Part shown: positions 1-34,842 of the stretch, in pieces
Layout: each line of letters starts with the position of its first letter
How positions within the stretch are numbered: the first letter of the stretch is position 1
DNA from: Candidatus Eiseniibacteriota bacterium
GTDB taxonomy: Bacteria > Eisenbacteria > RBG-16-71-46 > CAZAMP01
Length of the DNA stretch: 38,411 nt
Direction: 5' to 3'
NCBI GenBank assembly: GCA_965224245.1
Contig: CBDCYW010000016.1
Location: forward strand, 1-38,411
Notes under the pieces: model-generated
What the model saw: only the letters and a program-made list of their open reading frames with translations
Told to the model about the DNA's origin: nothing
Database searches by the model: none
Program-made: the position numbers and the translations under genes

Positions 1-550
1 GGCGAGTCGTTCGCCGTCGAGATGTTCGGCGCGCCCAACCGCATCGGCTACCAGCAGGCGCACGACGGCTGCGGCGGTAGCGCGTACACCATCCTGACGC
101 AGACCGAGCCCAACGTCGTCAACCCCGAGCTTGGGTCTGGCGATCACGTCGCTCCTAAATGGCATCTACATGCCGTGCGCCCGAGCGACGCCGACGGCCG
201 CGTCGACACGTACCCGACGCCCGTGCATTTCGGTGAGGATTGGGGCGAGGCGCTGGGGCCGTATACGAGTCATCGATACAGCCGTGGAGTCGAGAGTACT
301 ACGAACGAGAGTTTGATCGCAGCGGTCGTCACCGTCGAACATCGTTGACGCAGACGGGCGCTCCGTCGCATCGATCACCTACGGCGTCGTCACGCCACCG
401 CCCGTCGACTACGCCCGTCGGTTCATCGAGGAGTGGAACGCGATGTGTCCCGACATCCGCGCGGTGCCGAACCCGGCGCGCGTGAAGCTGGAGCAGGTCG
501 CAGCGATGGTGCCGACCAAGGCGTGGGAAACGTACTACGGGGGCAAGTAG
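1..550 (+). CDS. 3' part of the junction-spanning putative glycoside hydrolase (continues from 37794-38411); apparent indels at ~290-340
   Basis: Frame 1 is open from base 1 (GESFAVEMFGAP...) to TGA 348. Removing small insertions near 290-340 gives GVEYYEREFDRAVVTVNIVDADGRSVASITYG...YYGGK, ending at TAG 548-550, directly abutting the convergent stop at 551-553. Confidence 0.6.
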
Positions 551-826
551 CTACTCGTCGGCGGTGATGTACCAGAAGCACCAATCTGTCCCATCGGCTC
601 GGAACATGCCCTCGGCGTCCGAGTACCCCTCGGGCGCGGTCTCCGTCATCGGCACCATCACGTAGTCGTAGGCGTCCGTCCCCGACTGCGGGACGGCGGG
701 CAACCGCCACTCCAGACCGAGACTCCCCGACAACGACAGCACCCGGAACCCCGTAGCCCCAGCGGGCACCTCGATCGACGCGCCCGTCTCGGTCCACGCT
801 ACAGACGTCGCATGGTAGTAACTCAC
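551..826 (-). CDS. hypothetical protein (91 aa), last gene of the leftward arm
   Basis: Start overlaps the upstream stop; protein-like composition. Confidence 0.7.
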   Translation of the reverse strand: MSYYHATSVAWTETGASIEVPAGATGFRVLSLSGSLGLEWRLPAVPQSGTDAYDYVMVPMTETAPEGYSDAEGMFRADGTDWCFWYITADE

Positions 827-1188
827 GTCAACACCCCCACGAGTACAGACGCCGCAATCCCGATGAGCGTCACGAGGATGGTCACCAGCAAGCGACGGTT
901 CGCGCGGTTCGCCTCGCGCTGCTCGGTGGCGAGTTCGTGCCGCTCGGCCTTCTCCTGCATCAACTCTTTGACCGCGATCACGAGGCCCTCCCCGGCTTCG
1001 GCTCCGGAGCCGACACCGACCACGCGCTCGAGGCGTTCGATCCGTCTGCCGTGGCGGTCGAGCCGGTCATCGAGCCGCCGCGCGACCAGTGGTGTCGCTT
1101 CGCCTTCGTAAGCCTCTTGTGCCCGGATCTGTTCCGGCGTGGGCACGTCTCGGCGAGGATCGTCTGCCACCGTTCCCCCTCGTCGCAA
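823..1188 (-). CDS. coiled-coil protein with C-terminal transmembrane helix (lysis-cassette/holin-like)
   Basis: LDDRLDRHGRRIERLE coiled coil; C-terminal LLVTILVTLIGIAASVLVGVL hydrophobic segment; next to the amidase gene. Confidence 0.6.
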   Translation of the reverse strand: MRRGGTVADDPRRDVPTPEQIRAQEAYEGEATPLVARRLDDRLDRHGRRIERLERVVGVGSGAEAGEGLVIAVKELMQEKAERHELATEQREANRANRRLLVTILVTLIGIAASVLVGVLT

Positions 1189-1207
1189 TCGCTATCCGTC
1201 GCCCATT

Positions 1208-1903
1208 TCAAACGCGGCCCACTTCGACCACGTAATAGTCATCATGCACGCCATAGAGCGCTGGAGTCACGTCCTCGGTGTGGACATATCGCCCACCGCC
1301 TAGACCAAACGCGCGGGGCCACGGCTCGTTGCTCGTGGCGCCCTGGTCTGCGTGTCGCCCGAGCGTGCCCGCCATCGCGCGTCTCGCGTACTCCTCGATG
1401 TACGCCGCGCCCGTCGAACACACGTACAGCCGATCCGAGAACCCAAACCGCCGACGGCTCGCGTTGTGCCCGTACAGACCATCCAAGAGAAAGTCGATGA
1501 GGTCGCCGACGTCGTAGACGCTCCCGTCGAGTCGCGCCGCCGCCAGTCGCATGTACCCGATCGCCTCATCAGGATAGTCGATCGCGGGGCGCTTGTCGCC
1601 CCACTGACGCCGCAGCACGCGCCACCGCTCGGGACCGCGAACGAAGGCGTTCAGCCGCGACCAGTGCGCCATCGGCGCCGTGACCTCGAACACGCGGTCA
1701 TCCCCGAGGTAGATGCCCACGTGCGTGATGCGCCACGCGTCGTCCTTCGGGTAGCCGCGTCGACCCGTCACGGGGTTCGTGAGCACGTACCGCTGGGAGA
1801 GCCGGATGCCGTTGCACGGGATCGACGCCCACGGCGGCCACCACCGGACCCGGCATTCGGTCGCGATGATGTCGCCGGGGCGCATCGTGGTCGAGATGTT
1901 CAC
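1208..1903 (-). CDS. permuted papain-like NlpC/P60 (YiiX/YaeF, C92-like) amidase; candidate endolysin
   Basis: PGDII...HVGIYLG...YD...YVCS...VTP, with His before Cys as in the permuted family. GTG 1903 overlaps the upstream stop. Confidence 0.75.
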   Translation of the reverse strand: MNISTTMRPGDIIATECRVRWWPPWASIPCNGIRLSQRYVLTNPVTGRRGYPKDDAWRITHVGIYLGDDRVFEVTAPMAHWSRLNAFVRGPERWRVLRRQWGDKRPAIDYPDEAIGYMRLAAARLDGSVYDVGDLIDFLLDGLYGHNASRRRFGFSDRLYVCSTGAAYIEEYARRAMAGTLGRHADQGATSNEPWPRAFGLGGGRYVHTEDVTPALYGVHDDYYVVEVGRV

Positions 1904-2088
1904 GGCTTCGGCTTCGCCCCGATCGGGGTCCCGGCACCCAGCCGAAGGAACGCCACAGCCATAGCCAGGAGCGGCGCGTTCAGCGCGTCGACCGTCGCGT
2001 CCGGCACGATATCGTACTTGTCCAACACCGCGAGAGCCACGATTGCCAACGCCACCCCGATCGTTCTTGACTGGTACCACGGTTTCAT
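1900..2088 (-). CDS. putative holin (62 aa, two hydrophobic segments)
   Basis: MKPWYQSRTIGVALAIVALAVL start typical of small phage holins; ATGA overlap with the upstream gene. Confidence 0.6.
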   Translation of the reverse strand: MKPWYQSRTIGVALAIVALAVLDKYDIVPDATVDALNAPLLAMAVAFLRLGAGTPIGAKPKP

Positions 2089-2354
2089 TTCGCACCCCTT
2101 TCGCGATCGCGCTCGCATCGCTCAGCGATTGTTTTCAGCGCGATCATTGCATCTTCCACCTTGTCGACGCGGCCGTCCGTTTTGTCGATGCGCTTGGTGA
2201 CGACCTTCAGCCCGTCTACCACGAATTCGCGGTCGTCGCGAAACTTCTGCCACAGACGCCCCGCCGTGATGCCGATCGTTACTAGCACGACGGCGACGCC
2301 GACGGTGATCGTGATCTGTGTGTCCTGGGTCAGTGGCAATCCACCGAACGCCAC
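2085..2354 (-). CDS. small membrane protein (N-terminal TM plus coiled coil), lysis cassette
   Basis: ITITVGVAVVLVTIGITAG hydrophobic stretch followed by KRIDKTDGRVDKVE. Confidence 0.6.
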   Translation of the reverse strand: MAFGGLPLTQDTQITITVGVAVVLVTIGITAGRLWQKFRDDREFVVDGLKVVTKRIDKTDGRVDKVEDAMIALKTIAERCERDRERGAK

Positions 2355-2369
2355 ATTGGCCCCCCATCA

Positions 2370-5300
2370 TCATGGTAGGTTCAGGTGTAGATAACACTGC
2401 GTCGAGTCCGGCACCGCGAACGCTTCGATATCGCTGTAGATTTCGCGACCGTTGAGCGTGAATGTGATCTCATAGGTCGTGACGCTGTTCGGCTCCGTGA
2501 TCGCCGACGAGTAAATCAACGGCAGTACCGCACGACCGGGTACCGCCTCGCCGCCGAACGACCGGCCCGTTACGGCGCAGACCTTGTTATCCGACACCGT
2601 ACCGCCGGACCACGTGGCGCTCGATCCCTCGAAGTCGGCGCACACCCGGACCGAGTCGGACGCCGTCCCGGTTAACTCCACGATGTCGACGATGACGTTG
2701 CAGACGTCTGGCGTCTCCGGTGGGTCGTAGGCGATGCGAGTCAACTCGATGTCCTTGGTATATCCCGACGTCACGAGCGGGCGAAAGTTTCCTGTCTCGA
2801 CGAGGTAGTATCCCTGTTTCCACGCCCAGTAGTAGGTGCTCTCGCCGAGGTTGTAGGCGAACGAGTCGGTACCGCCGACGGCCACGACCTTACGCTGCGT
2901 GATCGGCGCCGCCTGCGTCGGCCCGCTCCTGAACTCGTAGACGACCCCGTCGATGGCGTTACCGGTGATATCGTCCTTGAACGTGACATACCCGACGTAA
3001 TCGCCAGTGGCGATGGTCGCGGTCGAGATGGCGGCGAAGTCGTCGGCCACCGCCGCGTCGACACTGTCGGCGATGGTCGCCGCCGACGGCGGCTTGACGA
3101 AACTCGTGTCGCCGATCGCCGGCCGTGCCGCAAGCGCAGCCGTCAACTCCGAGTTCGTCGGGATGTCGGAGACGTCCGGGACGCTCGACCACGTGCCCGG
3201 CTGGAACGCCTGAATGTACTGATACAGCTCGCTCTCGGTATACTGAGCTGCCGCGATGGCGTCGATATCCAACTGCATCGCCTCGACGAGAGCCTGCGTT
3301 AGCTGGGCGGCGAATGTCGCGTTCGAGATCGACGACCCAAGGTTGTACTGGCCGAGGATGATCGTGAGCTGGTTAGCCAGAACGGCGTCTAGCTCAGCCG
3401 CCGTCCAGTCACCAGGGCCATGAGATGCGATCAAGGTTGAGTCGATCTCCTCAGGCGTGTAGCTCTCTTGCGTGAACGCGCCACCGAGCGCTATCACGGA
3501 GTCGCCGCCCGGATAGTACCAGCTGAACAGCCCGCGCCAGTGACCGACCGTGTCGAGCGTAGCCGACCGATACCTGATGTTGCCGAACGCCGACAGAGAG
3601 TCATTCGGCCAGTAGTCGCGCAGCTCAGTCCCGAGGTAGACACGGAGCGCCACGCTATCAGGCGCCTCACCCATGTACCCCGACTGGAAGACGAAAGCGC
3701 CGGGGTTCGACGGGACAGACGGCGGGGGCGCGTCGGCAACCGTCGTGACTGGCCGCGACTCGGACGCGGTCGTGACGTTCCCAGACGCGTCCTTGCTCTG
3801 AGTGTAGTAGACGTATTGCGTTCCCGCCGAGAGCCCCGTGTCGTTGTAGCTCGCACCAGCCTGCCAGCCGCTCGACGTCCCACCTGGGTTTCCTGACGTC
3901 TCAACGAACCGGTACATGATGCCGCCGCCGGGGTCAGTAGCCGTGGAGGCGGTCATCGAGACCTCGGACGTCGACACCGCGTAGGGGTAGACCGACCACG
4001 TCGATGGCGTCGGAGTCGGTGGCGTGCCGTCCCCAGCCGCTCCAGTGGTGGATGCATACGACCCGGTCGCGCCCGCCTCCGAGACGCCTCGCATACGGAC
4101 GTCGTAGGTATCGCCCTCGACGAGCCCCGTGATGGTGTAGTCCGTCTCGGTTGACTGCCGCGTCCCGCTAGACGTGTACCCACCGCCGTCGAGCTGCCAC
4201 TCGATTTGATGATCGAAGTCGTAGGGCAGGTCCCACGTGACATCGATCTCGCCGTCGTCTCCGGCGGTCGCGGTGAGCCCGGTCGGCGGGTCGGGTGCGC
4301 CAGCGTCCTCGGTGATGCCCGTTGTTGACGCCCACAGTGTCTGGCGGTTAAACGCGGCGTCTCGTGCCTGGACCCTAAGATCGTACTCGGTCCCCTGCGC
4401 GAGCCCAGATAGAACGCGGGACGTTGCGGTGCCCCATCCGCCCGATATCCACGTCGGGTCACCTAGAACCCTGTATTCGACGATATACTCGATCGGCGTA
4501 GACGTGTCCGAAGCGGCATCCCATGACAGAGCCAACGACGAAAGCGTTGTACTATCGACCGCGAAATTCGTCAGCGGCTCCGGCGTGGGTGCTTCATCGT
4601 CGACAGTAACAGCACCTGCCGAGAATGTCCCGCCAACCGAGTGTGTGAAATGGAGGAACCCGCGTGTGTCGGTCGTGTCGAGTTTCGTACCGGACACCGG
4701 AAGGTTGATTGTGACGGCCGCGTTCGGCGTCATCCCTTCGATCTTGACGTTTACCGGAAGGCCTGTCGTGGTCGTCGAGAATGACCAGTCGTCGTTTGCC
4801 GTCATCGTGCGGTTGAATAACGCGACGTAGACCGTGTCGGTCATCGCCACGGCGCCGCCGAAGTGGTTTGCGTCTATCCCGCTGAGTGGGTCGCGCGAAC
4901 CGATCGCTGTTGACCCCTGGTCGAGAACCTGGTGGGCGACGGTCCACGTATGGAGCAACGTGTCAGCGGCTGCGATACGAGCCTCAAGGCGGTAGTAACA
5001 TCCTTGCCCGTGAAACCCCCACGAGTCCGTACTGGTTGGCTGCCAGTGGTCGGCAACGCCCGTACCGTTGTCGGATGGTCCGGCGTGAACGCCTTGATAA
5101 TAGAACTCAAACGACGGGTCCGGCGGGTAAATGCCACCGGTCTCGCGATTTCGGTAGGTCCCGTTGATCGGCTGCGACTCCTCGTAACTAGCCTGGTTCC
5201 GTTTCCCCTCCGATGCGCCGTCGTCCCACCATGATACGCTCTTGAGGTATTCGCCCTGTGAGTTCGGTCCGCCGATGACCCACAGATCGGGCTCGACATC

Positions 5301-7538
5301 GCCGCCGAGGATCTCGAACACAAAGCGAGACGTTTCGCCTGCGCCGTCCGTCACGTCGTAATAGTAGCCATACCCGCCGGGGCCGATCTTCGCGCCCGGC
5401 GTCCCTGAGAACGAATTAAGAGGCGTCCCGCCACCCGTCCAGTCCGATGCCCCGATGGTCTGCCCAGCCGTGCGAACGTCAGGCATCGGCATCCACATTT
5501 GATCCACGAACGTGATGCCGGCCCGTGCGGGGTTGTACGCTTCGCCACGGATCAAGAGGAGTTCACCGTCTCCGTTGAGTTGCCATCCCGCGATCTTGCG
5601 CTGCGCCGAGTCGATCGACACGTCATCATCCCATAACGTCGAAAGATCGGTGTTTGGGAAGTCCCACGTATTCTGGACGACAACATCGAAGCCGTCATCG
5701 TCTGAACTGAACTTGTCGAAATACCCCGATTTATATCGGTCGTAGCTGTACGGCGCCCATGCGCCATATTGTCGGTAAGGGTCCCATCCGTTCGTTCGTA
5801 GCGCCACGCTGAACCATCTTTGTGAACCCGTCGTTGTAAGCCATGAGTCGTTTACGTCGTAGTGACTACCGCCGTCCCATTCGGTCGCGTCGAACTGCGC
5901 GGCGGCTCGGTAGTCGGCGTGCGACGGGTCGATAACGCGCACCATGTTCCAACCGACTCCGCCCTTCCATATGAACGACGGAAAGAGGCTTGACAGGTCG
6001 TCATAATATCCAGGGCGCCCGGTTCCCCATGCATCGCCACGATGCAACCAGTAGTGGCCCCGGCCACTGTTCCCAATGTCGTGCGTCGATCCCGTCTGTG
6101 GCCCCGCAGTGATCGCGAACACCGCGACATCGGATCTCGGCGTTGGGTCGTCCTGCTGAGAGTCATAACCCCACTTTGTCCGGAAATACGCATACGCGCC
6201 GCGTCCGGTGTCGTCTCCTCCACCGCTTCCGCCCTTTTCCGTGCCCCACGCGATGTTATCAACGCCGAACAAACGCCCCTTTGGATATTCAGTCGCCGAC
6301 GCGCGCGTGACCTGACGATCGTCGAACATGAACCGAAGGACGCGATCCCAAACGGACGGCATCCCTATAGCGTCCACGATGTCATCGAGAAGCCCGATCG
6401 TTAGCGTGTCTTGTTCGAATGACGCGGCCATGTAAGCGGCCGTGATGTTGTGCGATAGAAGCCGCTGGTGGTTGTCATCACCCCGGAGCCCGACGTTCTC
6501 GACGTTCGACATGACTCGGTTCACTGTCCAATCGTCATATTTCAGATAGTGTTGGGCGAACGTGGTCCTAAAGTCGGTCGAGTCAGGCATGGCCTTGCTG
6601 CCGATGTATACGGGTATGAAGTCCTCTAGCGCGCGAGAGCTACCAGAACCATCGTCTGCATACGAATAATATGCGCCCTGCCCGACCTGGATGCGCGCTG
6701 ACCCCTGCGAGTACCACTGAGGATAGAACGTAGACAGACGAGTTGCGAATGTTCCAGAGTCATATTCTGGGTAACTCGCAACCTCGGACGATCCGGCCAT
6801 TGTGAGAAGCACCGACATCACGCCGCCGCGTCTCATGGCGATATTGTACCACGGCTGACGCGAAGGATCGCCAGAGCCTAGGTAGCCAATTGTTACGACC
6901 TCTTCTTGATTGAAGAGGATGCGTCCAAACTCCGAGTGTCTAGTCTGGTCGGCAGCTGTCCCGCCAACCATAAGGTCATGCGTCACGTCCCACAGGAAAA
7001 GAGGACCAAAATATATCGCGTCCTCAACCCACGCTTCGCCGCCATTCGTCTCTGTATTCCCGGTCCACGTAGCAAGTGAGTCGCGACCGAAACAGTCGTT
7101 GGCGAACTTGACTTGTGTGATAAAGCTATCCATCTGCGCGCGGAGTTTCGTCAGCATGTTCGCGTGTAGCGTTTCCTGCCCAGGGACGCTATCGGTTACG
7201 ACGTACACAAGCGCAACGGGCATCATGGCATCGAACATCTCGCCCGCTTGGCCCTCGCTTGCGTAGGGGTTGCTGCAACTAGCGCCAGCAACGCCGGTAT
7301 CATCCAAGATCGATCCGATGTCGGACTCGGCGGCGTTCGCGTCGTCGACAAGGTCGGACCATATATCGGTCTTGTCCTGATACCACGCCTCGCCGTCGTC
7401 CTCGATGCCGGCCTCGGAGCGCCAGCGGTAGAGTTGTTCATACGTGATGCCGCGCGGGTAGTCGGTGCGCGTCACCGGCTGCGACATCGCGACCGACGCC
7501 ACACAGAGCGCCACGAGTGCTAGTAGTAGGGTCCTCAT
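2370..7538 (-). CDS. 1722-aa multidomain protein: signal peptide, heparinase II/III-like polysaccharide-lyase region, three FN3-type domains, C-terminal beta-rich domain
   Basis: N-terminal MRTLLLALVALCVASVAMS. YFRTKWG...FAITAGP...HD...GHYWLHRG resembles the heparinase II/III beta-domain. FN3-like segments: LALSWDA..YIVEYR..YDLRVQA; PDPPTGLTATAG..IDVTWD; SGWQAGASYNDTGL..YVYYTQSKD. Confidence 0.65.
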   Translation of the reverse strand: MRTLLLALVALCVASVAMSQPVTRTDYPRGITYEQLYRWRSEAGIEDDGEAWYQDKTDIWSDLVDDANAAESDIGSILDDTGVAGASCSNPYASEGQAGEMFDAMMPVALVYVVTDSVPGQETLHANMLTKLRAQMDSFITQVKFANDCFGRDSLATWTGNTETNGGEAWVEDAIYFGPLFLWDVTHDLMVGGTAADQTRHSEFGRILFNQEEVVTIGYLGSGDPSRQPWYNIAMRRGGVMSVLLTMAGSSEVASYPEYDSGTFATRLSTFYPQWYSQGSARIQVGQGAYYSYADDGSGSSRALEDFIPVYIGSKAMPDSTDFRTTFAQHYLKYDDWTVNRVMSNVENVGLRGDDNHQRLLSHNITAAYMAASFEQDTLTIGLLDDIVDAIGMPSVWDRVLRFMFDDRQVTRASATEYPKGRLFGVDNIAWGTEKGGSGGGDDTGRGAYAYFRTKWGYDSQQDDPTPRSDVAVFAITAGPQTGSTHDIGNSGRGHYWLHRGDAWGTGRPGYYDDLSSLFPSFIWKGGVGWNMVRVIDPSHADYRAAAQFDATEWDGGSHYDVNDSWLTTTGSQRWFSVALRTNGWDPYRQYGAWAPYSYDRYKSGYFDKFSSDDDGFDVVVQNTWDFPNTDLSTLWDDDVSIDSAQRKIAGWQLNGDGELLLIRGEAYNPARAGITFVDQMWMPMPDVRTAGQTIGASDWTGGGTPLNSFSGTPGAKIGPGGYGYYYDVTDGAGETSRFVFEILGGDVEPDLWVIGGPNSQGEYLKSVSWWDDGASEGKRNQASYEESQPINGTYRNRETGGIYPPDPSFEFYYQGVHAGPSDNGTGVADHWQPTSTDSWGFHGQGCYYRLEARIAAADTLLHTWTVAHQVLDQGSTAIGSRDPLSGIDANHFGGAVAMTDTVYVALFNRTMTANDDWSFSTTTTGLPVNVKIEGMTPNAAVTINLPVSGTKLDTTDTRGFLHFTHSVGGTFSAGAVTVDDEAPTPEPLTNFAVDSTTLSSLALSWDAASDTSTPIEYIVEYRVLGDPTWISGGWGTATSRVLSGLAQGTEYDLRVQARDAAFNRQTLWASTTGITEDAGAPDPPTGLTATAGDDGEIDVTWDLPYDFDHQIEWQLDGGGYTSSGTRQSTETDYTITGLVEGDTYDVRMRGVSEAGATGSYASTTGAAGDGTPPTPTPSTWSVYPYAVSTSEVSMTASTATDPGGGIMYRFVETSGNPGGTSSGWQAGASYNDTGLSAGTQYVYYTQSKDASGNVTTASESRPVTTVADAPPPSVPSNPGAFVFQSGYMGEAPDSVALRVYLGTELRDYWPNDSLSAFGNIRYRSATLDTVGHWRGLFSWYYPGGDSVIALGGAFTQESYTPEEIDSTLIASHGPGDWTAAELDAVLANQLTIILGQYNLGSSISNATFAAQLTQALVEAMQLDIDAIAAAQYTESELYQYIQAFQPGTWSSVPDVSDIPTNSELTAALAARPAIGDTSFVKPPSAATIADSVDAAVADDFAAISTATIATGDYVGYVTFKDDITGNAIDGVVYEFRSGPTQAAPITQRKVVAVGGTDSFAYNLGESTYYWAWKQGYYLVETGNFRPLVTSGYTKDIELTRIAYDPPETPDVCNVIVDIVELTGTASDSVRVCADFEGSSATWSGGTVSDNKVCAVTGRSFGGEAVPGRAVLPLIYSSAITEPNSVTTYEITFTLNGREIYSDIEAFAVPDSTQCYLHLNLP

Positions 7539-7539
7539 G

Positions 7540-9204
7540 CTACGGCGCTCCTATCACCATGCGTATCTCACGCGGGACCGTCAGCGCGTCCCGGTACTTC
7601 GTGTCCGTCCCGCCGTCCCACACCCGCCACTCGACAGACCAGACGCCCGACGCCACCGCCAGGAAGTCGATCGTGGCCGTATCACCGTCGTGGTCCCACC
7701 ACATGGCCCCGTTCATGTACCGCGTCGTCCGTCCGGCCGGGTCTTTGACCGTTGCCCACACGCTATCGGCGTCCGCCAGACCAGAGAGGTCGAACGCCTG
7801 CGCGTACTGACCGCCAAGCGGGAGTGCCCCTATCGTCCTGCCGCTGATCCCACGACGATCGACCGTAGGCGCGAGCCCGACGTTTGATGTGTCGTCCTCG
7901 GCGAAGTAAGGACGGGCAAAGTCGTCCGTGTCCGCGCCGTAGTCCCACGCCTGGAACTCCGAAAATACGGTGGTGGTGTCGACGCCAATTTCCATGAACG
8001 TCAACGTTCCCCCGTTTGGCTGATACCATCGGTTTCCGCCGAACGTTACGGACGATCCTGCGCCCGAGATCAGTATACCGCTACCGGTGTTCGAGTCGGC
8101 GATGATGTTGTCTTGTATGACGCAGGACGTGCACGGGTCCGCCGCGACGAGCCACCCGACGTCTGGACTGTTGGTATTGTAGAAGGTATTGCCGATGACC
8201 CGGTGCCCCGATCCTTGCACCTCGATCATATCGTCGCCGTTGTTCCACCATCTGGAGTCCTGGACCGTGACGTTCTGGCATATGTTCCCCGACGCGTCGA
8301 GATACGCGCCGTCGTCGGTATTATCGTGGACGTCGCAATCGTCCACGAGATGCCCCACGCCATTGAATATCACGCCATGGTCGAAGCCGGACACGTCGGT
8401 GTTCCGGATGATGGCGTTTTCTGCCGAGTTGTTCGTGATGACGATGCCGTTCGGCTTATCGCCGCCGAGTTCGCCAGACACCTGCCGGTCAACGACGCAG
8501 TCCTCGACTACCAGCGGGCGAACGTCGCCGACGTTGATACCGCTGGCATTAATGCCAGTCATGGAGCACCGGTACACATAAAGACCGCCGATTGGCCCGA
8601 CGGCAGCGCCAGCGTAAATCGCCGTCGTTCCGTTGTCCTCGGTGTTAAGGCGCCATACGCAATCGACAAACCAGTATGGCTCTGACGTCACGCCAGGGGC
8701 TCCCGAGATCAGTACGGCCCCGGTGGTAGCGTCCGCTGTCGGCGGGGCGTCTCCGGCCGTAACGTTCTCCCAATCCTCGAATATGATCCTCTCGAACCGG
8801 TACCCGTCTCGCATCACCGACGGGCTGGAGTTCTGGAAATGGAAGGCATACTGCCCCGTTCCTGTCCTCGCCGCGCCCGATATGATGATCTCCGCACCAG
8901 GGTACGCCATGATGTAGGTCGGAGCGGACGCCGTACCCGAGCACGACGTGTGCGGGATGAGCTGGTAGATGTCGGTGATTGTCCACGTCCCCACGGGCTC
9001 AGCCTCGGACGCCGCCACATAAAGCGTGTCACCACCGACGACCTTGCCGGACGACAAGGCGTTCGACATGGTTGCGTAGGACAGTGCGAGGGTGCTTCCG
9101 TCGTCTGAGTCGCTCCCGTCTGATGTCAGGTACTTCGTCGACCCGTGTGCCGCCGTCGCCGAGAGCGTCGCGATGGCCAGTGCCCAAACGTACGCCGCCC
9201 GCAT
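7540..9204 (-). CDS. right-handed parallel beta-helix (pectate-lyase-like) protein with signal peptide; tailspike/depolymerase-like
   Basis: MRAAYVWALAIATLSATAAHG then YLTSDGSDSDDG...GGDTLYV; repeated beta-helix rungs (IIRNTDVSG, VDDCDVHDN, VIGNTFYN, IQDNIIAD). Confidence 0.8.
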   Translation of the reverse strand: MRAAYVWALAIATLSATAAHGSTKYLTSDGSDSDDGSTLALSYATMSNALSSGKVVGGDTLYVAASEAEPVGTWTITDIYQLIPHTSCSGTASAPTYIMAYPGAEIIISGAARTGTGQYAFHFQNSSPSVMRDGYRFERIIFEDWENVTAGDAPPTADATTGAVLISGAPGVTSEPYWFVDCVWRLNTEDNGTTAIYAGAAVGPIGGLYVYRCSMTGINASGINVGDVRPLVVEDCVVDRQVSGELGGDKPNGIVITNNSAENAIIRNTDVSGFDHGVIFNGVGHLVDDCDVHDNTDDGAYLDASGNICQNVTVQDSRWWNNGDDMIEVQGSGHRVIGNTFYNTNSPDVGWLVAADPCTSCVIQDNIIADSNTGSGILISGAGSSVTFGGNRWYQPNGGTLTFMEIGVDTTTVFSEFQAWDYGADTDDFARPYFAEDDTSNVGLAPTVDRRGISGRTIGALPLGGQYAQAFDLSGLADADSVWATVKDPAGRTTRYMNGAMWWDHDGDTATIDFLAVASGVWSVEWRVWDGGTDTKYRDALTVPREIRMVIGAP

Positions 9205-9929
9205 TAGTACGCCTCCAGCTTAATAGATGTCGCGATGTACGTGGTACCCGTCCCGGTGTCCCCGGGCTTCTCCGCGATCTTGAGCCACAGGATTTCGTCA
9301 GTCGCGGCGGGGGTGTAGCTGAACGTGTGCGTGACCTTTTTGAATGCGTAGCTCGACGTCTCCGGCGTGAATGACACCGTCTCGTCCGTGTAGCTCCGGC
9401 CTGTCCCTGTAGCACTCCCGTCTACCGAACACGTCATGTCGTGCTGGCCGTCAGTCGCCGCAGACGACGCCGCAAAGAACGTGATGCGTAGCGTCGTTCT
9501 ACCCTCGAAGGTCCCCGGTATCTGCGTCGACCAGTAGCGATATGCACCACTCTCGTCCGTGAACGTCAGAACAGGGCCGTAGAACGTCCCGAGTCCAGTC
9601 AATCCAGCGTTGCCATTCGACAGTGACGCGAACAGCTGAACGAGAAGCGTGTCCGCCTGCGCCGAGTACCCGACCGTCCCGGCCGGCGTCGACTCCGTCC
9701 ACGCAGAGCCGGAATACGCAAGCACATCCCCCGACGACGGACTCGTGATCGTGACGTCTCCGAGATCGTCGAGGTCCGAGACGCCACCGCCGCCGGCCTG
9801 TATGCTGTCCTGAACGGCCGTGGACAGCTTCCCCCACGTCACCGCCCCGTCCTCGATCGTCGGGACCACGATGGACCCCGACAGCAGCACCACCGCAGCA
9901 AGCGCCGCGAGCGCGCGTCTAGTCCACAT
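9204..9929 (-). CDS. tail-fibre-like protein with N-terminal signal-peptide-like sequence
   Basis: IEDGAVTWGKL and LDDLGDVTITSPSSGDVLAYSGSAW motifs common in phage fibres; MWTRRALAALAAVVLLSG N-terminus. Confidence 0.6.
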   Translation of the reverse strand: MWTRRALAALAAVVLLSGSIVVPTIEDGAVTWGKLSTAVQDSIQAGGGGVSDLDDLGDVTITSPSSGDVLAYSGSAWTESTPAGTVGYSAQADTLLVQLFASLSNGNAGLTGLGTFYGPVLTFTDESGAYRYWSTQIPGTFEGRTTLRITFFAASSAATDGQHDMTCSVDGSATGTGRSYTDETVSFTPETSSYAFKKVTHTFSYTPAATDEILWLKIAEKPGDTGTGTTYIATSIKLEAY

Positions 9930-12321
9930 TGATCGCCTCCACCACGAACGGTTGATAGGGCCGCTCGGTTATGCGCGTGACGCGCCACTTCCGGCCGGAC
10001 CATGACGGCTCGGACTCAGAGCCCGCCGAGACGAACCCTGGATAGCGCATGATGTTGTCGAGGCTTGCGTCGGTCGTGAACACGTAACCGCTCTCGATCG
10101 CATCGCCGAACCCCATCGACGCCGACACCTGTATCGTGAGCCGCTGGGTGTGTAGCATGTCGAACCGCCGGACGCAGACATCCCACGCGCATCCGTTGTT
10201 ATTCACGTAGGGCAGTCGGTATATTGACTTACGACGGCCGTAGAGTTCCTGCGACGTATCGGCCAGCGCCTCGCGCGTCGTGTCCCTGGCGCCTGTATGG
10301 TTGAACGACTGAACGGTCCCGTTGTCGACCCACACCGACCGAAGGTATCTACCGCTGGCGGGGTCTAAGTCGTATTCGACATAAACCGCGTTGACCATGT
10401 CGTCCAGCGGCGTCATCCCCCATGTGATCCCGTTGTCCGGTATCTGGTAATCGTACAGGACGACGCCAGAAACATCGGCCCCCGTCTCGATCGGAATGGC
10501 GCGCCAAAGCGACGCGGAAGCCGAGTACCAGATGTGCGAGTACGTAGACTCGCAGAACCTGGCGACCATGTCCTCGAGCTTGGCGTCGGGATCTTTTTCG
10601 GCGATTGCCATCTTCCAGACAACGACCCCAGTGCTCGTGCTGGACGAGACGGACGTATCGAGGTCCGTTTGCCACGCCGTGAGACCACCATAACCCGACG
10701 TCTGATCGATGTCCCCTGATGCGATCGGCGTATCGTCGTCCGCCGTACCATCGACAAGCATGCGCTTCAACACCTCATCGGCGTCAGCACTCTCGTTTGC
10801 CGGCGTACCGATCTCGCGCGTCCCGTATCCCGTGAAGTACATCGACATGGCACGCTTGTCGTCGGCCGACTGGTCGACCGGACCAAGGAACAACTGACGC
10901 CGTGACGCGATGAAATAACGCACGCCGAACAGTGCCATATCAATCGTTCCAGCCGCGTCCCGCTTCTCGACGTAGATGTAATCCGCGCCAGATGCGCCGA
11001 AGTCATCATGCATGAAATAGTTCGCGCCCGATCCAGCATCCTGAACCTTGATGACCTGCCAATCCTCGTCGCCTGCGGTGATCGTCGTATCCGCATACGC
11101 CACGTTGCTTCCGTCTGCCACGTAACCAATCCGGACATCAACGTCATCCGCATCGTGGTCTGTGACGCGGACGATCGCGGCGATGCCGTGCGACGTGTAG
11201 CCATCGACTGGAACGTACTCTAGATCTGGGTCTACCATGCGACCGTAGTAGTGCTGTCCGGCTGTTGCGAACTTCGCTGTGCTCGTGGTTGTGGCGTATG
11301 TCGTCAGGTCGGAACGGTCTAGGGCGTTGCGCCAGTTGGTCCACGACGACTTGGTGGTGGAGTCCATAAGAAGCGGGTCCTCCACCGGGACAGCGAACCG
11401 GGCGGACGCTATGTATTCCTCGTCGGTGGCCGGAGACCCCGTCGTGTAGAAGTTCGCCGGGACGTAGTCAACCGAAACGGTACCCGCCGTCTCGTCAACA
11501 GTCCCGTACCCGCCACCGTTCGGGTCATATACGCGGTAGGGGTTATCCGGGTCTGTCGGGTGGGTCGCGTACAGGATAGCGGCAGCGTGTAGCGTGTCTG
11601 ATACAGACCCCGACGACACCCGGACCCTGATGCCGTCGTCGTCGTAGCCTTGGATATATGCCGGGGACGCGCCGCCGGAGATGTTGAACCAGTCGAAGTA
11701 CTCGTCGGTCGCGATCGCGTGAGTCCGGTTGAACCAGTGTTCCGCCTTGGTGCCAACGAACCCGCCGACGAACGGTACGACGGCTACACCTGGCATCTTC
11801 GACAGTGCCGGGTATCGGCGTGGGGAAAGCGTTACGACGGGCTCGTTGTCGGCCCAGAACTCGGGCATCGCTAAGATGGTGAACCCTTCCCTGGTGGCAC
11901 CTGGCGGTATGTCGTATATGCGTCCCGTGAACCGGGTCGCGTACATGGTCGAGCCAAGGGGAGCGCCGACCGACAGGGTATGCTCGTCCGCCTCGAATAT
12001 CGTGACGGACCCGCCTACCAAGTAGTACGCGTTCAGCATGTCGAGCACCGTATGGTCTAAGTCCTGGTCGAGTAGATGGACGTTCCGGATCTGGATACGT
12101 ACCGACGTCCGGTGGTATCCAGGAGCCAACAGCGACGCGACGGGGTGGAACATCGTATCCCACGACTCGACGCCATCGATATATTGGCCTGTCCCGATGC
12201 GTAGTGCCTCGTCGGATAGCCTTACCGTGACGGTCGCCGCGCCAGAGTTGAGCGTGAGCTGGGCAAACCACACCGGGCGACGAAACGCCCTCGCGGCTAC
12301 GTCTGAAAACGTCGCGCTCAT
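9919..12321 (-). CDS. baseplate hub / tail-tip (Tal-like) protein
   Basis: Position after the Dit-like gene; VNAVYVEYD...SQELYGRRK...LPYV C-terminal motif typical of tail-tip proteins; ATG 12321 overlaps the upstream stop. Confidence 0.6.
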   Translation of the reverse strand: MSATFSDVAARAFRRPVWFAQLTLNSGAATVTVRLSDEALRIGTGQYIDGVESWDTMFHPVASLLAPGYHRTSVRIQIRNVHLLDQDLDHTVLDMLNAYYLVGGSVTIFEADEHTLSVGAPLGSTMYATRFTGRIYDIPPGATREGFTILAMPEFWADNEPVVTLSPRRYPALSKMPGVAVVPFVGGFVGTKAEHWFNRTHAIATDEYFDWFNISGGASPAYIQGYDDDGIRVRVSSGSVSDTLHAAAILYATHPTDPDNPYRVYDPNGGGYGTVDETAGTVSVDYVPANFYTTGSPATDEEYIASARFAVPVEDPLLMDSTTKSSWTNWRNALDRSDLTTYATTTSTAKFATAGQHYYGRMVDPDLEYVPVDGYTSHGIAAIVRVTDHDADDVDVRIGYVADGSNVAYADTTITAGDEDWQVIKVQDAGSGANYFMHDDFGASGADYIYVEKRDAAGTIDMALFGVRYFIASRRQLFLGPVDQSADDKRAMSMYFTGYGTREIGTPANESADADEVLKRMLVDGTADDDTPIASGDIDQTSGYGGLTAWQTDLDTSVSSSTSTGVVVWKMAIAEKDPDAKLEDMVARFCESTYSHIWYSASASLWRAIPIETGADVSGVVLYDYQIPDNGITWGMTPLDDMVNAVYVEYDLDPASGRYLRSVWVDNGTVQSFNHTGARDTTREALADTSQELYGRRKSIYRLPYVNNNGCAWDVCVRRFDMLHTQRLTIQVSASMGFGDAIESGYVFTTDASLDNIMRYPGFVSAGSESEPSWSGRKWRVTRITERPYQPFVVEAINVD

Positions 12322-13226
12322 GTCAGCCCCGACGTCGGCAGGAACGTCCGAACAGCAAGCGACGCCTCCCATGTACCGGAACCGACCTGCTGTTCCTGGT
12401 AGGCCGTAACGCCGTCGAGCATCGCGAACCGACACCCCGCCGTGTAGTTGTCACCGGTCCCGCTCGTCGATGCGCCGTCGATGTACGTGTCGTCCGTCGT
12501 CGTCATACAGAACGGTTGTGTGCCGTTCGTCTGGTCGACGAAGTCCCGCATGTCCGCGAGCGCCGTGGAGTCCAGCAGAAAGCTCATCGTCGTCGCGCGG
12601 TATCGATGTCGCTGTCTAGACGAGTATATCCCACCCGTCTCGCCGGGGATCATAATGGACGGCAGCTCGGGCGTGCTGATAATGGGGTACGCCGGGTTCC
12701 CGATCTGGTCGAACGACAGGACGTTCCCGACGTAGCACTGTCCGATCTCGACATCGACGGCTGGGTCAGACCCCGTATACGAGAAACGGACCTCGATGTA
12801 CCGCTCAGACAACTTCGTGTCGAACTCGATCAGCACGTCGTCGTCGCTGTCCGGCACCCATGCGCCGATCTGAGTTTTTGACCCGTACGCGCTATCGTCG
12901 TCGGTGTACAGCGTCACAAGAATGCACTGAGACGAGTAGACCGTATGGTTGATGAGCGCTAGCCCGGTGTTGTCCTCGAGCCATCCCGACGGTGCGCCCG
13001 TGACTCCACGGTCGAACCTGAGCGCAAACGAGTCTTGGGTATACGTCGAAAGCACGGTACAGACCGACGCCCTGTTACCGTCGAATGCTTGCGCGGCTCC
13101 GAAGCCGGCCGGCGTATACGTCGACGTTACTGCGGTGTCTGAATGGTCTACGATGGACGGGGCGCCCGCACCGGGGACCCATGCGAGGTTCCGGTAAAGA
13201 ACGCGGTACAGAGACGAGGTCGCCAT
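12318..13226 (-). CDS. distal tail (Dit-like) protein
   Basis: Immediately after the tape measure gene; beta-rich, 302 aa. Confidence 0.5.
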   Translation of the reverse strand: MATSSLYRVLYRNLAWVPGAGAPSIVDHSDTAVTSTYTPAGFGAAQAFDGNRASVCTVLSTYTQDSFALRFDRGVTGAPSGWLEDNTGLALINHTVYSSQCILVTLYTDDDSAYGSKTQIGAWVPDSDDDVLIEFDTKLSERYIEVRFSYTGSDPAVDVEIGQCYVGNVLSFDQIGNPAYPIISTPELPSIMIPGETGGIYSSRQRHRYRATTMSFLLDSTALADMRDFVDQTNGTQPFCMTTTDDTYIDGASTSGTGDNYTAGCRFAMLDGVTAYQEQQVGSGTWEASLAVRTFLPTSGLT

Positions 13227-14851
13227 CAGGAAACCCCCACGATCCTGGCTTCGCGCTGGATGCGCTCCAGTTCACCCGACATGAATGCCGTGCGAGACGT
13301 CGGCGTCCCGATGAACGTCCCCGGCAGTTGGAACCCGCCGCCGCCTCCGCCGAAACCGAGCGACCTACCGACGGCCCCGAGGAACCCAGCCCCCTGACCG
13401 AGTCCAGGCACGAGCGACAGAAGCGCGTTCATCACGAGAGCGCGTGCAATGATCCGGTTGATGTCGCCGATCACCTGCTTCGCCACGTCCCGGAACACGT
13501 CGCCGAACTTGATCTTCGCGATGTTCCCGCCGTCGATCAACGTGTTCGTGACGGCCGTCAGACCGGACCCGATCAGGTTCACAGTCCCCACGACCGACGT
13601 CAGTTTCAAGTCGAGTTCCGTGGCGTCGGTCACGCTTTGTTTCCAGAGATCACGTTGGGTTTGCAGCATCTCGTTCATGTCGCCTAGACCCTGTAGCGAC
13701 CCTGCACCAGACACCCTGTCGATGCCGGGTGTTTGTCTGGCTCCGAACGACGGGACCATCGGACCGGAGAACGCGCCAAGCCCACCGAGTCCGGGCAGTG
13801 TGTCTAGGCCACGCAAGGCGGCCTCCTGCCGTGCCTCGATCGACGGACCCCGTGGTCCGCCGAATATCATAGACAACGCCGCGTGAGGGGACAGACGGCC
13901 AGCTTCGAACATCTCTCTGATCCTAGCGAGCGATTGTGGACCGGTCGTAATCGCGCCGAGGTTTAGCCTGCTACCGAGCGGCGCTGCAATCCCCGGCTGT
14001 GAGTACGGAAATGTGGTCGGAGTCCCAGCGAACTGACCACGGGCGCCGAAGATCATCGATAAAACCAACTGCACGACGTTGGCATCGCCTGCCGCGAAGT
14101 TCGCGGCCTGCTTGAAAAACTCCGTGAGGTCCGCCAACACTTGCGGCGCAACCACGTTCCGAAGTCCCTCAACTGACGCCTTGATGTCCGTCATGGCGTC
14201 GTTAAAGTCTGCGGCGCCCCTGGTCGCATCCTTATCGAGCGATACGCCGAGCTTCCGCGCGCGTTCGCGTAGCGCGTCCAGCGCCTCGCCACCTTGGCCG
14301 AGGATCTGAACCATTGCCACACCCTCGGAGTCGAACAGCTTCTGAGCCTCGTAGGTCCCGCGCCCCTCCTTCGCCAGATCGGCGAACCGATCGGCGAGCA
14401 CGGGTAGTAGGTCCTCGATACTGCGGTACCGACCGGCCAGGATGTCGGCCGATAGCCCCATCTGCTCGAAAACCGGTTGCGCTTCGCCCTTGCCCGTCTG
14501 TATGAACGTCTCTAGCCGCCGCTGCCCGCGCTGTAGCGCCATCTCCATCGCAGAGATAGACACGCCACTACGCTCGGCGGCATAGCCCATCTCCGAGACG
14601 AACTCGGTCGAGACCTTGAGGCGGTCGGCGAACTTGCCGACGTGGTCGGCTTCGGTGGCAAAGCGCCGTAACTGGTCAGCAGCGATACCAACGGCGGCTG
14701 CGACGCCGGCGGCACCAACAAACCGACCGGCGAGTTCTTTCGCTGATAGCCCAAGCCGCTTCGTCGACGACTCTGTATTCGAAAGTTCTCGCTTTGCCCG
14801 GTCCGCCCCGACGGTCTTTATGATAAGCTCAACGACGTTCTTTAGCGCCAC
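13226..14851 (-). CDS. tail tape measure protein (541 aa)
   Basis: VELIIKTVG start; KFADRLKVSTEFVSEMGYAAERSGVS and LRERARKLGVSL...AADFNDAM motifs; Ala/Gly-rich helical sequence. Confidence 0.85.
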   Translation of the reverse strand: MALKNVVELIIKTVGADRAKRELSNTESSTKRLGLSAKELAGRFVGAAGVAAAVGIAADQLRRFATEADHVGKFADRLKVSTEFVSEMGYAAERSGVSISAMEMALQRGQRRLETFIQTGKGEAQPVFEQMGLSADILAGRYRSIEDLLPVLADRFADLAKEGRGTYEAQKLFDSEGVAMVQILGQGGEALDALRERARKLGVSLDKDATRGAADFNDAMTDIKASVEGLRNVVAPQVLADLTEFFKQAANFAAGDANVVQLVLSMIFGARGQFAGTPTTFPYSQPGIAAPLGSRLNLGAITTGPQSLARIREMFEAGRLSPHAALSMIFGGPRGPSIEARQEAALRGLDTLPGLGGLGAFSGPMVPSFGARQTPGIDRVSGAGSLQGLGDMNEMLQTQRDLWKQSVTDATELDLKLTSVVGTVNLIGSGLTAVTNTLIDGGNIAKIKFGDVFRDVAKQVIGDINRIIARALVMNALLSLVPGLGQGAGFLGAVGRSLGFGGGGGGFQLPGTFIGTPTSRTAFMSGELERIQREARIVGVS

Positions 14852-14852
14852 G

Positions 14853-15053
14853 TCACACCTCGACCGACTTTGTGGGGAACAACATCCCGATGTCCTTCGC
14901 GTCGTCGGCTGTCGACATCATCGCCACCGCTTCGAGGAACATATCCCACAGGAACGGGAGCCATCCGATCTCGGGCACCTCAAGCAACTCCGACGCTCGT
15001 CGGCCCGTCCGCCGCGACAGCGCCATCACCATCCGGAAGGTCGCCGTTTCCAT
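14853..15053 (-). CDS. tail assembly chaperone frameshift extension (gpT-like)
   Basis: Overlaps the 3' end of the chaperone gene in the +1 frame and ends just before the tape measure gene. Confidence 0.55.
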   Translation of the reverse strand: METATFRMVMALSRRTGRRASELLEVPEIGWLPFLWDMFLEAVAMMSTADDAKDIGMLFPTKSVEV

Positions 15054-15522
15054 CGCGAAACCCGGCCATCGACGCAGCTGTCTCCGCCTCCGACGCCGCC
15101 TCGAGCATCTTGTCGAGCCCGGTTGATGCGTTGATGATCGCGACGCATAGCCGTTCCTGGTGTAGCTGCTCGATCGCGTACAACGGCACCGCGTCGTCGG
15201 GCACGTTGTCCTTGCGGTGGTCGACTACCTTCGGGTCGATGCACGCCGCCTCGATGATCCGCACTTGGATCTCGTTGGCGTCGTCACGCTCGGCCATCCG
15301 TTCGAGATCACCCTGAGCCTTCTCTAGTACCTTGGTCTCCTCTGCGTTCAGCCCGCCGTCGGTGCCGGACTTCCACGAGAGATATGCAGCCAATGCGGCG
15401 TTGAAGATCGGCCATGCTGCCTGGGGTAGATCGGCCTTCGAGAGCACCCGGTACTTGATCGTGCGCCCGTCGTCGAGGTCATAGACGCGCTCGGCGGCGG
15501 CTTTCCATGCTGCTACGTCCAT
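14980..15522 (-). CDS. tail assembly chaperone (gpG-like)
   Basis: Between tail tube and tape measure genes; ATG 15522 in a TGATG overlap. Confidence 0.65.
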   Translation of the reverse strand: MDVAAWKAAAERVYDLDDGRTIKYRVLSKADLPQAAWPIFNAALAAYLSWKSGTDGGLNAEETKVLEKAQGDLERMAERDDANEIQVRIIEAACIDPKVVDHRKDNVPDDAVPLYAIEQLHQERLCVAIINASTGLDKMLEAASEAETAASMAGFRDGNGDLPDGDGAVAADGPTSVGVA

Positions 15523-23510: not shown

Positions 23511-23511
23511 G

Positions 23512-33351: not shown

Positions 33352-33500
33352 CGTCGGTTGGTGTAAGGGCACGCCGACGTCGCCATCACCGACGCCATCA
33401 CCAGCGCCAGACCGATCACCCGCCACAGGATCGCGCCCGTCCCGATCGCGAACGCCACCGCGCCCGCGAGATACGCCACCGCCCGTTTCAGTCCTCGCAT
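33348..33500 (-). CDS. small membrane protein, paralog 1
   Basis: GAGGAGGAG RBS; MRGLKRAVAYLAGAVAFAIGTGAILWRVIGLALVMASV. Confidence 0.6.
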   Translation of the reverse strand: MRGLKRAVAYLAGAVAFAIGTGAILWRVIGLALVMASVMATSACPYTNRR

Positions 33501-33516
33501 GACTCCTCCTCGGTTA
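33371..33516. repeat. 146-bp direct repeat, copy 1
   Basis: Near-identical to 34697-34842 (offset 1326). Confidence 0.95.
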
Positions 33517-34826: not shown

Positions 34827-34842
34827 GACTCCTCCTCGGTTA
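34697..34842. repeat. 146-bp direct repeat, copy 2
   Basis: Near-identical to 33371-33516. Confidence 0.95.

Follow-up and report, generated by a model that had tools for sequence, protein, structure and literature searches.

Candidate export signals on three consecutive gene products at the end of a phage tail operon

This work concerns three consecutive genes at the end of the late tail operon of a phage, whose products, P0001, P0002 and P0003, each begin with what appears to be a signal peptide. The genes lie on contig CBDCYW010000016.1 (C17; 38,411 bp, 63.5% GC) of assembly GCA_965224245.1, binned as a Candidatus Eiseniibacteriota bacterium; we analysed the contig over its whole length and call it the window. 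The main contig of the same assembly measures 6.45 Mb and has a GC content of 69.1%. A first-pass annotation, made from the letters alone, had described three consecutive open reading frames (ORFs) of 241, 554 and 1722 residues in the place where fibres and spikes are normally encoded. Coordinates and translation starts match ours exactly, and the placement is correct as well: the genes follow a tape-measure gene (phrog_8125) and two genes in tail-tip position, and they precede two genes for small membrane proteins. In the order of translation, the three genes, their ribosome-binding sites (by sequence reading) and their leaders are as follows.

9936-9940, minus strand: GGAGG ribosome-binding site, 6 nt upstream of the P0001 ATG
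9204-9929, minus strand: gene for the 241-residue protein P0001; ATG start, leader, fibre motifs and a C-terminal domain of about 140 residues
9873-9929, minus strand: P0001 leader, codons 1-19; MWTRR and a 20-residue uncharged stretch, candidate cuts after residues 17-19, S-G-S before Ile20
9212-9216, minus strand: GGAGG ribosome-binding site, 7 nt upstream of the P0002 ATG
7540-9204, minus strand: gene for the 554-residue protein P0002; ATG start, leader, right-handed beta-helix and a C-terminal part of about 150 residues
9142-9204, minus strand: P0002 leader, codons 1-21; MR and a 17-residue uncharged stretch, A-H-G before Ser22
7548-7552, minus strand: AGGAG ribosome-binding site, 9 nt upstream of the P0003 ATG
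2370-7538, minus strand: gene for the 1722-residue protein P0003; ATG start, leader, orphan domain of about 940 residues, fibronectin type III (FN3) repeats and a C-terminus of about 430 residues
7482-7538, minus strand: P0003 leader, codons 1-19; MR and a 17-residue uncharged stretch, A-M-S before Gln20; aligns with the leader of the homologue P0005

But are these N-termini translated at all, or do the true starts lie downstream of the hydrophobic segments? A full Shine-Dalgarno (SD) sequence stands only at codon 1; within 70 codons, no downstream in-frame start with a full SD was found in any of the three genes, and the leaders as first described keep their place. In P0001, the sole alternative is a weak one, a GTG at codon 30 preceded by GAGG, which would cut through the fibre motif; in P0002 and P0003, a start beyond the hydrophobic segment would drop residues matched by a family or a homologue. 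P0003 also has an in-frame ATG at codon 18 (7485-7487), two codons ahead of the predicted cut, from which a leaderless product nearly identical to the mature form would arise; this codon has no SD and is not conserved in P0005. The genes are tightly packed, with an 11-nt overlap between the preceding 838-residue gene and P0001, a 1-nt overlap between P0001 and P0002, and 1 nt between the P0002 stop and the P0003 start. A scan of positions 1-16000 on both strands gave 3 promoter-like and 12 terminator-like sites, compared with 4.1 and 8.2 in shuffled sequences, and none at the boundaries of the three genes. Their GC content at third codon positions (GC3) is 0.74-0.79, like that of other phage genes. 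Because of the SD at codon 1, the abutting genes, the lack of boundary promoters or terminators and the phage-like GC3, translation of the hydrophobic N-termini within the late tail operon is very probable.

The leaders were assessed with a home-made rule for the n-h-c layout of signal peptides, which requires the n-region to carry a net positive charge, the hydrophobic core to be free of charged residues and positions -1 and -3 to be occupied by small residues. Applied to the 56 greedily called ORFs of the window, it flags exactly P0001, P0002 and P0003; among the 35 ORFs that pass a GC3 filter, the count is likewise three. For calibration we turned to the large chromosome of the assembly. 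As positives we used ORFs with a type IX secretion C-terminal domain, because such proteins must cross the inner membrane, and 27 of 50 were flagged; internal pseudo-N-termini of these same ORFs served as decoys, and 3 of 295 were flagged, a false-positive rate of about 1% per ORF. With so few decoys passing, three adjacent matches are far beyond chance. At the chosen start, the rule flags 610 of 3711 chromosome ORFs (16%).

The features behind these matches are those the first-pass annotation had pointed out, a basic N-region, a hydrophobic core and a small-residue cleavage region, and all three leaders have them. The n-regions MWTRR, MR and MR are short and net positive, with zero acidic residues ahead of the core. 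Small uncharged residues occupy -3 and -1 of candidate cuts that lie 3-8 residues past the core. Counted inclusive of the c-regions, the uncharged stretches of P0002 and P0003 (17 residues each) fit a Sec h-region, which at about 7-15 residues stays below the length of a membrane span, and that of P0001 (20 residues) is enough for a membrane anchor. A twin-arginine export signal has the pattern S/T-R-R-x-F/L-L/A in front of a core of moderate hydrophobicity. T-R-R-A-L-A in P0001 resembles this motif, while P0002 and P0003 have a single Arg; RR is also present in type IX cargo leaders of the binned host, and the motif alone is therefore non-discriminating. Given T-R-R-A-L-A and the 20 uncharged residues, P0001 could possibly be exported by Sec or by twin-arginine translocation (Tat), or could remain as an uncleaved signal anchor. 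The earlier label ‘Sec-type’ consequently suits P0002 and P0003 and may be too narrow for P0001. The leaders of P0001 and P0002 are rich in Ala, Ser and Gly and weakly hydrophobic (mean hydropathy 2.29 and 1.55), a composition compatible with a signal-anchor-release (SAR) segment, the kind of N-terminal span that leaves the membrane upon depolarisation. A lipobox has the pattern [LVI][ASTVI][GAS]C at the end of the leader; inspection by eye found none in the three leaders, whose sole Cys is Cys12 of P0003, in L-V-A-L-C with Leu at -1. Type IX sorting domains are also missing from P0001-P0003 (TIGR04183 Por_Secre_tail in NCBIfam, E up to 0.1; PF18962 in Pfam). In a scan of the genome for this domain, the matches listed among the best 150 of 415 candidates all lie on contigs C1, C3 and C11, and none on C17.

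The largest of the three proteins, P0003, divides behind its leader into three regions.

4659-7481, minus strand: orphan N-terminal domain, about residues 20-960; homologous over its whole length to the stand-alone protein P0005
3699-4586, minus strand: FN3 repeats, about residues 985-1280; PF00041, E 5.7e-17
2373-3671, minus strand: C-terminal region, residues 1290-1722; four Cys in the last 110 residues

The FN3 region matches titin FN3 chains among PDB sequences (E 3.2e-15), and residues 985-1109 match phrog_31 ‘central tail fiber J’ (E 3.4e-14). For the C-terminal region, neither a Pfam family nor a match in 50,697 phage records (tblastn) was found. We take this order, with an enzyme-like domain first, then FN3, then distal parts, to be that of secreted multi-domain glycan enzymes and not that of fibres.

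The N-terminal domain is nearly without relatives. A word-index search with residues 1-960 returned the query itself only, and an exhaustive HMMER search with residues 1-1000 against 1,835,955,588 representatives returned, besides the protein itself, only P0005 (E 8.6e-20). P0005 is a stand-alone protein of 1011 residues; its alignment with P0003 starts at residue 1 and extends to about residue 990, with an identity of 28%. Its leader, MRLLYLLLLTVLLSGEATA, stands before Gln20, and the candidate cut given by the rule falls after residue 19 in both proteins. The first 20 columns of the alignment hold only 7 identities, yet the n-h-c shape is kept, and such divergence with the shape kept is the way functional signal peptides evolve.

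A possible enzyme identity for this domain was followed and rejected. In the Atlas, its language-model features lie nearest to heparinase II/III and ulvan-lyase-like clusters (0.92; 161 of 256 shared). No heparinase family (PF07940, PF16889, PF16332) or other Pfam entry matched residues 1-953 at E up to 10, no PDB sequence matched the protein or its profile alignment A1, and hhalign of A1 against eight PF07940-bearing ORFs of the phylum gave a probability of 0.1%. Among 206 genomes of the phylum, with the unpublished G083 counted in, 86 carry the PF07940 family, which is absent from this assembly at E 1e-10.

P0002 is easier to place. Residues 252-397 match PF13229 Beta_helix (E 4.4e-12, above the family cut-off), and on this family match the protein is a right-handed beta-helix. 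Its language-model features in the Atlas lie nearest to pectate-lyase-like beta-helix clusters (0.91), and the ten best family-bearing matches are all beta-helix. Residues 11-71 align to positions 232-292 of the 976 positions of phrog_13163, with about 230 N-terminal positions of the family absent. A word-index search of 5.8 billion clusters returned the query itself only. The lone match to P0002 in the phylum, a TolC-like Ala-rich ORF, was discarded as false.

P0001 carries the fibre motifs ascribed to it: residues 51-193 match phrog_9729 ‘tail fiber protein’ (E 1.2e-7) at positions 548-688 of 750, the distal part of the profile, and the proximal 547 positions have no match in the protein. 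Structure prediction of trimers, which the first-pass annotation had put forward as a check, was favourable for P0001. Three copies of residues 20-241 were modelled with an interface score (ipSAE) of 0.73 (runs 0.71-0.74), compared with 0.00 for the best control; the predicted local distance difference test (pLDDT) of the partners is 72 or higher, and 63% or more of the contacts recur from run to run. Of 30 solved pairs of one chain, 21 passed the threshold applied to such models, and none of 23 single chains did; the threshold was calibrated on two copies, not three. The modelled interface begins at residues 22-23, directly behind the leader, and the model supports a homotrimer. The word-index search of the same clusters found a single, motif-level match, P0004, which shares with P0001 only a fibre repeat of about 30 residues and has a hydrophobic segment at residues 16-30. 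Five fibre ORFs from IMG/VR (1003-1018 residues) that bear the repeat of P0001 have no leader. The expectation that homologues would conserve the leaders is borne out for P0003, whose sole homologue has an aligned leader.

The three genes belong to a complete siphovirus-type late module on the minus strand, recognised by Pfam and PHROG matches, which also encodes a prohead protease, adaptor and neck proteins and a minor tail protein (phrog_290). Its landmarks and the neighbours of the three genes are these.

23512-24900, minus strand: large terminase (Pfam/PHROG)
21294-23528, minus strand: portal fused to a MuF-like head-morphogenesis domain in one 744-residue ORF (PF04860, residues 66-405; PF04233, residues 618-724)
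18759-20237, minus strand: HK97-type major capsid protein (Pfam/PHROG)
13226-14851, minus strand: 541-residue tape-measure protein, with which the tail-tip region begins (phrog_8125 ‘tail length tape measure protein’, E 4.4e-31)
12318-13226, minus strand: 302-residue gene in distal-tail (Dit) position, by position only; no signal-peptide-like N-terminus
9919-12435, minus strand: 838-residue gene in tail-tip (Tal or hub) position, by position only; no signal-peptide-like N-terminus
2085-2354, minus strand: 89-residue ORF with one hydrophobic segment, holin-like by topology only; GC3 0.74, no family match
1900-2118, minus strand: 72-residue ORF with two hydrophobic segments, holin-like by topology only; weak match to phrog_4712 ‘holin’, E 0.27

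The tape-measure gene matches 18 further PHROG families, mostly tape-measure families. The 302-residue gene matches zero Pfam families and a single weak PHROG of unknown function; for the 838-residue gene, no Pfam or PHROG family was found, and no match in the 50,697 phage records, 41 related genomes or viral contigs. Its listed GTG start overlaps the 302-residue gene by 118 nt, and the first 38 residues are rich in Arg and Gly; because of these two features, translation probably begins at an internal Met near 12321. The remaining contig carries early genes for a DNA methylase, RusA, a replication initiator, RecT and a helix-turn-helix protein, and no integrase was found among the ORFs scanned in the window. 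The early region contains a 169-bp direct repeat (33371-33538 and 34697-34864, 89% identity) that covers the starts and upstream parts of two minus-strand ORFs. The contig begins and ends with the identical nine bases GGCGAGTCG (1-9 and 38403-38411), and an ORF open at the 3' end (37794-38411, plus strand) is in phase with an ORF open at the 5' end (1-348, plus strand), with or without the nine-base overlap. Such ends would suit a complete genome, either circular or circularly permuted.

Downstream of P0003, the minus strand of 551-2354 looks like a lysis cassette. Besides the two holin-like ORFs it holds an ORF of 225-295 residues with good GC3 (1208-2095) and one of 121 residues that has a hydrophobic segment at its C-terminal end. 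The ORFs of this region match no holin, endolysin or spanin family, and no endolysin family was recognised across the whole window. A Cys...His pattern reminiscent of NlpC/P60 in 1208-1885 was seen by eye only and was set aside, with no computed match behind it. These neighbours bring up the idea that P0001-P0003 are accessory lysis proteins: after early export of the kind seen with Sec-type or SAR endolysins, they would wait in an inactive state at the membrane until holin triggering frees them to break an envelope layer other than peptidoglycan, one beyond the reach of ordinary endolysins. The genes lie directly upstream of the two holin-like genes, the window offers no recognised endolysin, and the Ala/Ser/Gly-rich, weakly hydrophobic leaders of P0001 and P0002 resemble what is described for SAR domains (PMC6116005). 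Against this, none of the three matches a lysis family, sizes of 554 and 1722 residues and FN3 repeats are unlike known lysis proteins, and the 225-295-residue gene at 1208-2095 could itself be the endolysin. We give this idea the slimmest of chances.

As judged by its genes, the phage is without a close relative. The best portal matches among the 50,697 phage records reach 22-28% identity, and a search for portal loci returned only two, from Dehalococcoidia metagenome-assembled genomes (27-29% identity). By tblastn, the same records gave no match to P0001, P0002 or residues 1-1000 of P0003. Viral contigs (IMG/VR) held nothing for the 838-residue gene, the tape measure, P0003, P0005 or the portal; metagenome contigs held nothing for P0005 or alignment A1, and genome contigs nothing for A1. 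The DNA stretch itself is present in four sequencing-run rows from one study, with no RNA run among those listed.

For a baseline, we looked for tail modules in related genomes. The tape-measure family occurs in 6 of 205 other genomes of the phylum, with recognisable tail modules at two loci, L019 (G060:C72) and L021 (G016:C8). Downstream of the tape measure, these two loci have nine PHROG-confirmed tail or structural genes, and none has a signal-peptide-like N-terminus; L019 also has a 98-residue leader-bearing ORF between the last tail gene and the endolysin. At a third locus, L018, which is not clearly a tail module, none of the six large plus-strand ORFs downstream is flagged. L019 and L021 carry phrog_1082, phrog_778 and phrog_1101 genes and then an endolysin, a gene set that resembles that of tails of the gene-transfer-agent type. 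Because none of the nine confirmed tail genes is flagged, leader-bearing tail-end genes are, as far as this small sample shows, not usual for phages of this host group.

This baseline bears on the plainest alternative, namely that P0001-P0003 are ordinary cytoplasmic tail proteins and that their hydrophobic N-termini are helices buried during assembly, membrane-active segments used in infection, or sequences ignored by the export machinery late in the cycle. Such a role would suit the genomic position and the matches to fibre families, and the false-positive rate of about 1% per ORF comes from the calibration on one genome. However, three adjacent false positives are very unlikely at 3 in 295, each leader shows all three parts of the n-h-c layout, small residues at -1 and -3 included, P0005 keeps its leader despite divergence, and the confirmed tail genes elsewhere have no such termini. 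On balance we regard the alternative as unlikely.

The binned host would be equipped for export: it encodes signal peptidase I, TatC and Omp85, and its chromosome is diderm-like and rich in type IX cargo. None of the three proteins has a homologue in this host or in the 206 genomes of its phylum. The 26 small contigs of the assembly (C2-C27) have GC contents of 57-66%, compared with 69.1% for the chromosome, and all but C20 (69.0%) lie at least 3 points below it; C3 and C11 contain near-identical, leader-bearing ORFs of 555 residues with type IX sorting domains. The small contigs may be strain-variable islands or may come from a second, related organism. No further phage with leader-bearing tail genes is evident on the other small contigs.

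Could the three genes instead be bacterial cargo? As a moron-type cassette of bacterial origin, expressed from a prophage, they would remodel the surface glycans of the lysogen, for seroconversion, exclusion, or nutrient or biofilm use, outside the lytic programme. P0001-P0003 are built like bacterial secreted enzymes, the GC content of the three-gene region (0.59-0.61) is slightly lower than that of the window overall (0.635), the divergent early region with recT and rusA genes resembles that of temperate phages, and signal peptides on carbohydrate-active enzymes (CAZymes) of prophages are documented (PMC13507307). In contrast, these genes have no promoter or terminator of their own, their starts overlap or abut tail genes, and their GC3 is phage-like; homologues are missing from the host and its phylum, and so is an integrase from the scanned ORFs. 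A cargo origin therefore strikes us as decidedly unlikely.

What, then, are the three proteins? In sequence, P0002 and P0003 appear to be built like secreted glycan-degrading enzymes, P0003 with a catalytic-looking domain, FN3 linkers and sandwich-like parts towards the C-terminus, and P0001 like a short trimeric copy of a fibre tip. The partial profile coordinates of P0001 and P0002, together with the stand-alone P0005, argue that no N-terminal virion-attachment domain is present, and a comparison of the three proteins and the two tip-position proteins found no common N-terminal module (best E 0.02). These observations suggest that the leaders occupy the place where virion-anchor domains normally lie. 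Most likely, the three products are not conventional tail fibres assembled in the cytoplasm. The first-pass annotation had offered two readings of them, as exported proteins that join the virion at or after lysis and as secreted or surface enzymes that remodel glycans; the second is the better-fitting one, given the beta-helix, the undetected anchors and the stand-alone P0005. We give a little better than an even chance to a role as glycan-acting proteins of the late phase that are exported, act within the envelope or outside it, and are set free by lysis.

Such a system might operate as follows. The three genes end the late tail operon, and each product would bear a functional N-terminal export signal. 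Export across the cytoplasmic membrane would occur while virions are being built: P0002 and P0003 would cross via Sec and be cut by signal peptidase I, and P0001 would either leave through Sec or Tat or remain anchored, with its trimer forming in the envelope. There, the proteins could bind and cut the surface or matrix polysaccharide of their own host, the likely receptor layer of the phage. Cutting from the periplasmic side or after release might leave less fresh receptor on show and fewer progeny trapped on the infected cell, and lysis would free ready depolymerases to open up the matrix ahead of the burst. What we infer here is the export, the substrates and the role in the infection.

The reading as true virion fibres or spikes makes use of the same leaders. 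In that case, Sec or Tat would carry the proteins out, folding and trimer formation would take place in the periplasm or at the membrane, and docking onto finished tails would follow only when holin action and lysis mix the compartments. The twin-arginine motif of P0001 would fit, as Tat exports folded proteins, WceF being an example (PMC7949094); so would the position in the receptor-binding-protein slot, coupled to the tip genes, the fibre-like P0001 with its modelled trimer interface just behind the leader, and a phage that shows no other recognisable receptor-binding protein. Yet no tail-docking domain and no similarity to the tip-position proteins was found, and the order of P0003, enzyme first and binding-like parts last, is the layout of a secreted enzyme. 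We know of no precedent for extracytoplasmic fibre docking in tailed phages, and a full-text literature search surfaced no tail fibre or tailspike of a tailed phage with a signal peptide. We judge such docking to be very unlikely. The same low standing applies to its widest form, in which the whole adsorption apparatus (fibre tip, beta-helix spike and giant enzyme-fibre) passes through Sec or Tat and is fitted to completed tails only outside the cytoplasm, at or after lysis. If true, it would amount to a second, extracytoplasmic assembly stage that is new to Caudoviricetes.

Several points weigh against secreted glycan-acting proteins as well. None of the three could be assigned to a catalytic family, Pfam giving only Beta_helix and fn3. 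The genes sit exactly in the receptor-binding-protein slot, P0001 matches a tail-fibre family, and P0003 shares FN3 with fibres of the lambda J type; moreover, no other receptor-binding protein is recognisable in the phage, and the 838-residue tip gene is without a family. The case for absent anchors is built on profile coordinates and missing similarity and not on structures: AlphaFold2 models of P0002 (single sequence, mean pLDDT 33) and of residues 1-1000 of P0003 (two-row alignment, mean pLDDT 26) were unusable. The n-h-c rule is home-made, calibrated on a single genome, and recovers only 27 of the 50 cargo ORFs. The gene for P0005 may be non-phage; the contigs encoding P0005 and P0006 measure 8,043 and 17,982 bp. 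The host assignment comes from binning alone, with a GC gap of 5.6 points (63.5% versus 69.1%), and comparison of C17 with the chromosome gave no DNA or CRISPR spacer-like match; C1 showed a single short repeat region, located at none of the matched C1 sites.

Should glycan-acting proteins prove to be what the late operon sends to the envelope, this would be a distinct way for a phage to handle capsule or matrix. The matter has a practical side, too. For uncultured phages, it is routine to label tail-end genes as fibres and to predict host range from them; if some of these genes encode exported enzymes, host-range predictions and virion models would be wrong for the phages concerned. As the three proteins are near-orphans, any activity would define new enzyme families, and the case can be tested without host culture, by reporter fusions and recombinant proteins.

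Finally, we would like to place the three proteins in the context of known phage and bacterial systems. Exclusion proteins that target the envelope and are encoded beside tail genes include Llp of T5, Cor of phi80, N15 and T1, and Lom and Bor of lambda. Like P0001-P0003, they have export signals and genes beside those for receptor binding, and they act in the envelope on the receptor of their own phage; in contrast, they are lipoproteins or outer-membrane proteins of small size, in many cases expressed from the prophage, whereas the present leaders have no lipobox and two of the proteins are large and enzyme-like.

Phage depolymerases, attached to the virion or free, are closer to P0002 in build: they are described as placing a beta-helix in the tail-fibre slot, and the free enzyme clears capsule or matrix at lysis (PMC6116005). 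The known tailspikes, however, bind the particle through N-terminal domains, carry no signal peptide and reach their fold inside the cytoplasm. Their known free forms arise from excess production or internal starts, not from export.

An exported relative in shape is found in bacteria. WceF of Pantoea stewartii is described as a Tat-exported, tailspike-like exopolysaccharide glycanase (PMC7949094); like P0002, it is a right-handed beta-helix of the tailspike type with an N-terminal export signal, and it acts on the exopolysaccharide of its own producer. By the same account, WceF differs in being chromosomal, in a polysaccharide biosynthesis cluster, and in having a Tat signal and a head domain like that of the P22 tailspike. 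P0002, for its part, is encoded in the late tail operon of a phage and has a single, Sec-like Arg, with no head domain seen and no sequence similarity to WceF found.

Export before lysis is likewise known from endolysins, namely the Sec-exported Lys44 of phage fOg44 and the SAR endolysins (PMC6116005). As described there, these are late phage proteins with a signal peptide or SAR segment that leave the cytoplasm before lysis and act on an envelope polymer; they differ in being peptidoglycan hydrolases of the lysis cassette, whereas P0001-P0003 lie at the end of the tail operon, have no lysis-family match and are large. Phage-borne enzymes that act on carbohydrates or the envelope and are predicted to be exported have been reported as well. 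A survey of prophage CAZymes gives signal peptides on 3261 of 64,678 (5%) (PMC13507307), and gp40 of Xanthomonas phage PBR31 is described as an SGNH esterase with a signal peptide that is encoded beside the lysis genes and resembles tail-associated hydrolases (PMC10975493). The survey is described as excluding tail-related genes by design and treats its matches as metabolic cargo, in contrast to the three genes in the fibre slot here. Exported, envelope-acting proteins encoded by phages are already known; what is new is the occurrence of three such genes in succession, translated together with the tail tip and filling the fibre slot, that include a trimeric copy of a fibre tip and an enzyme-like protein of 1722 residues.

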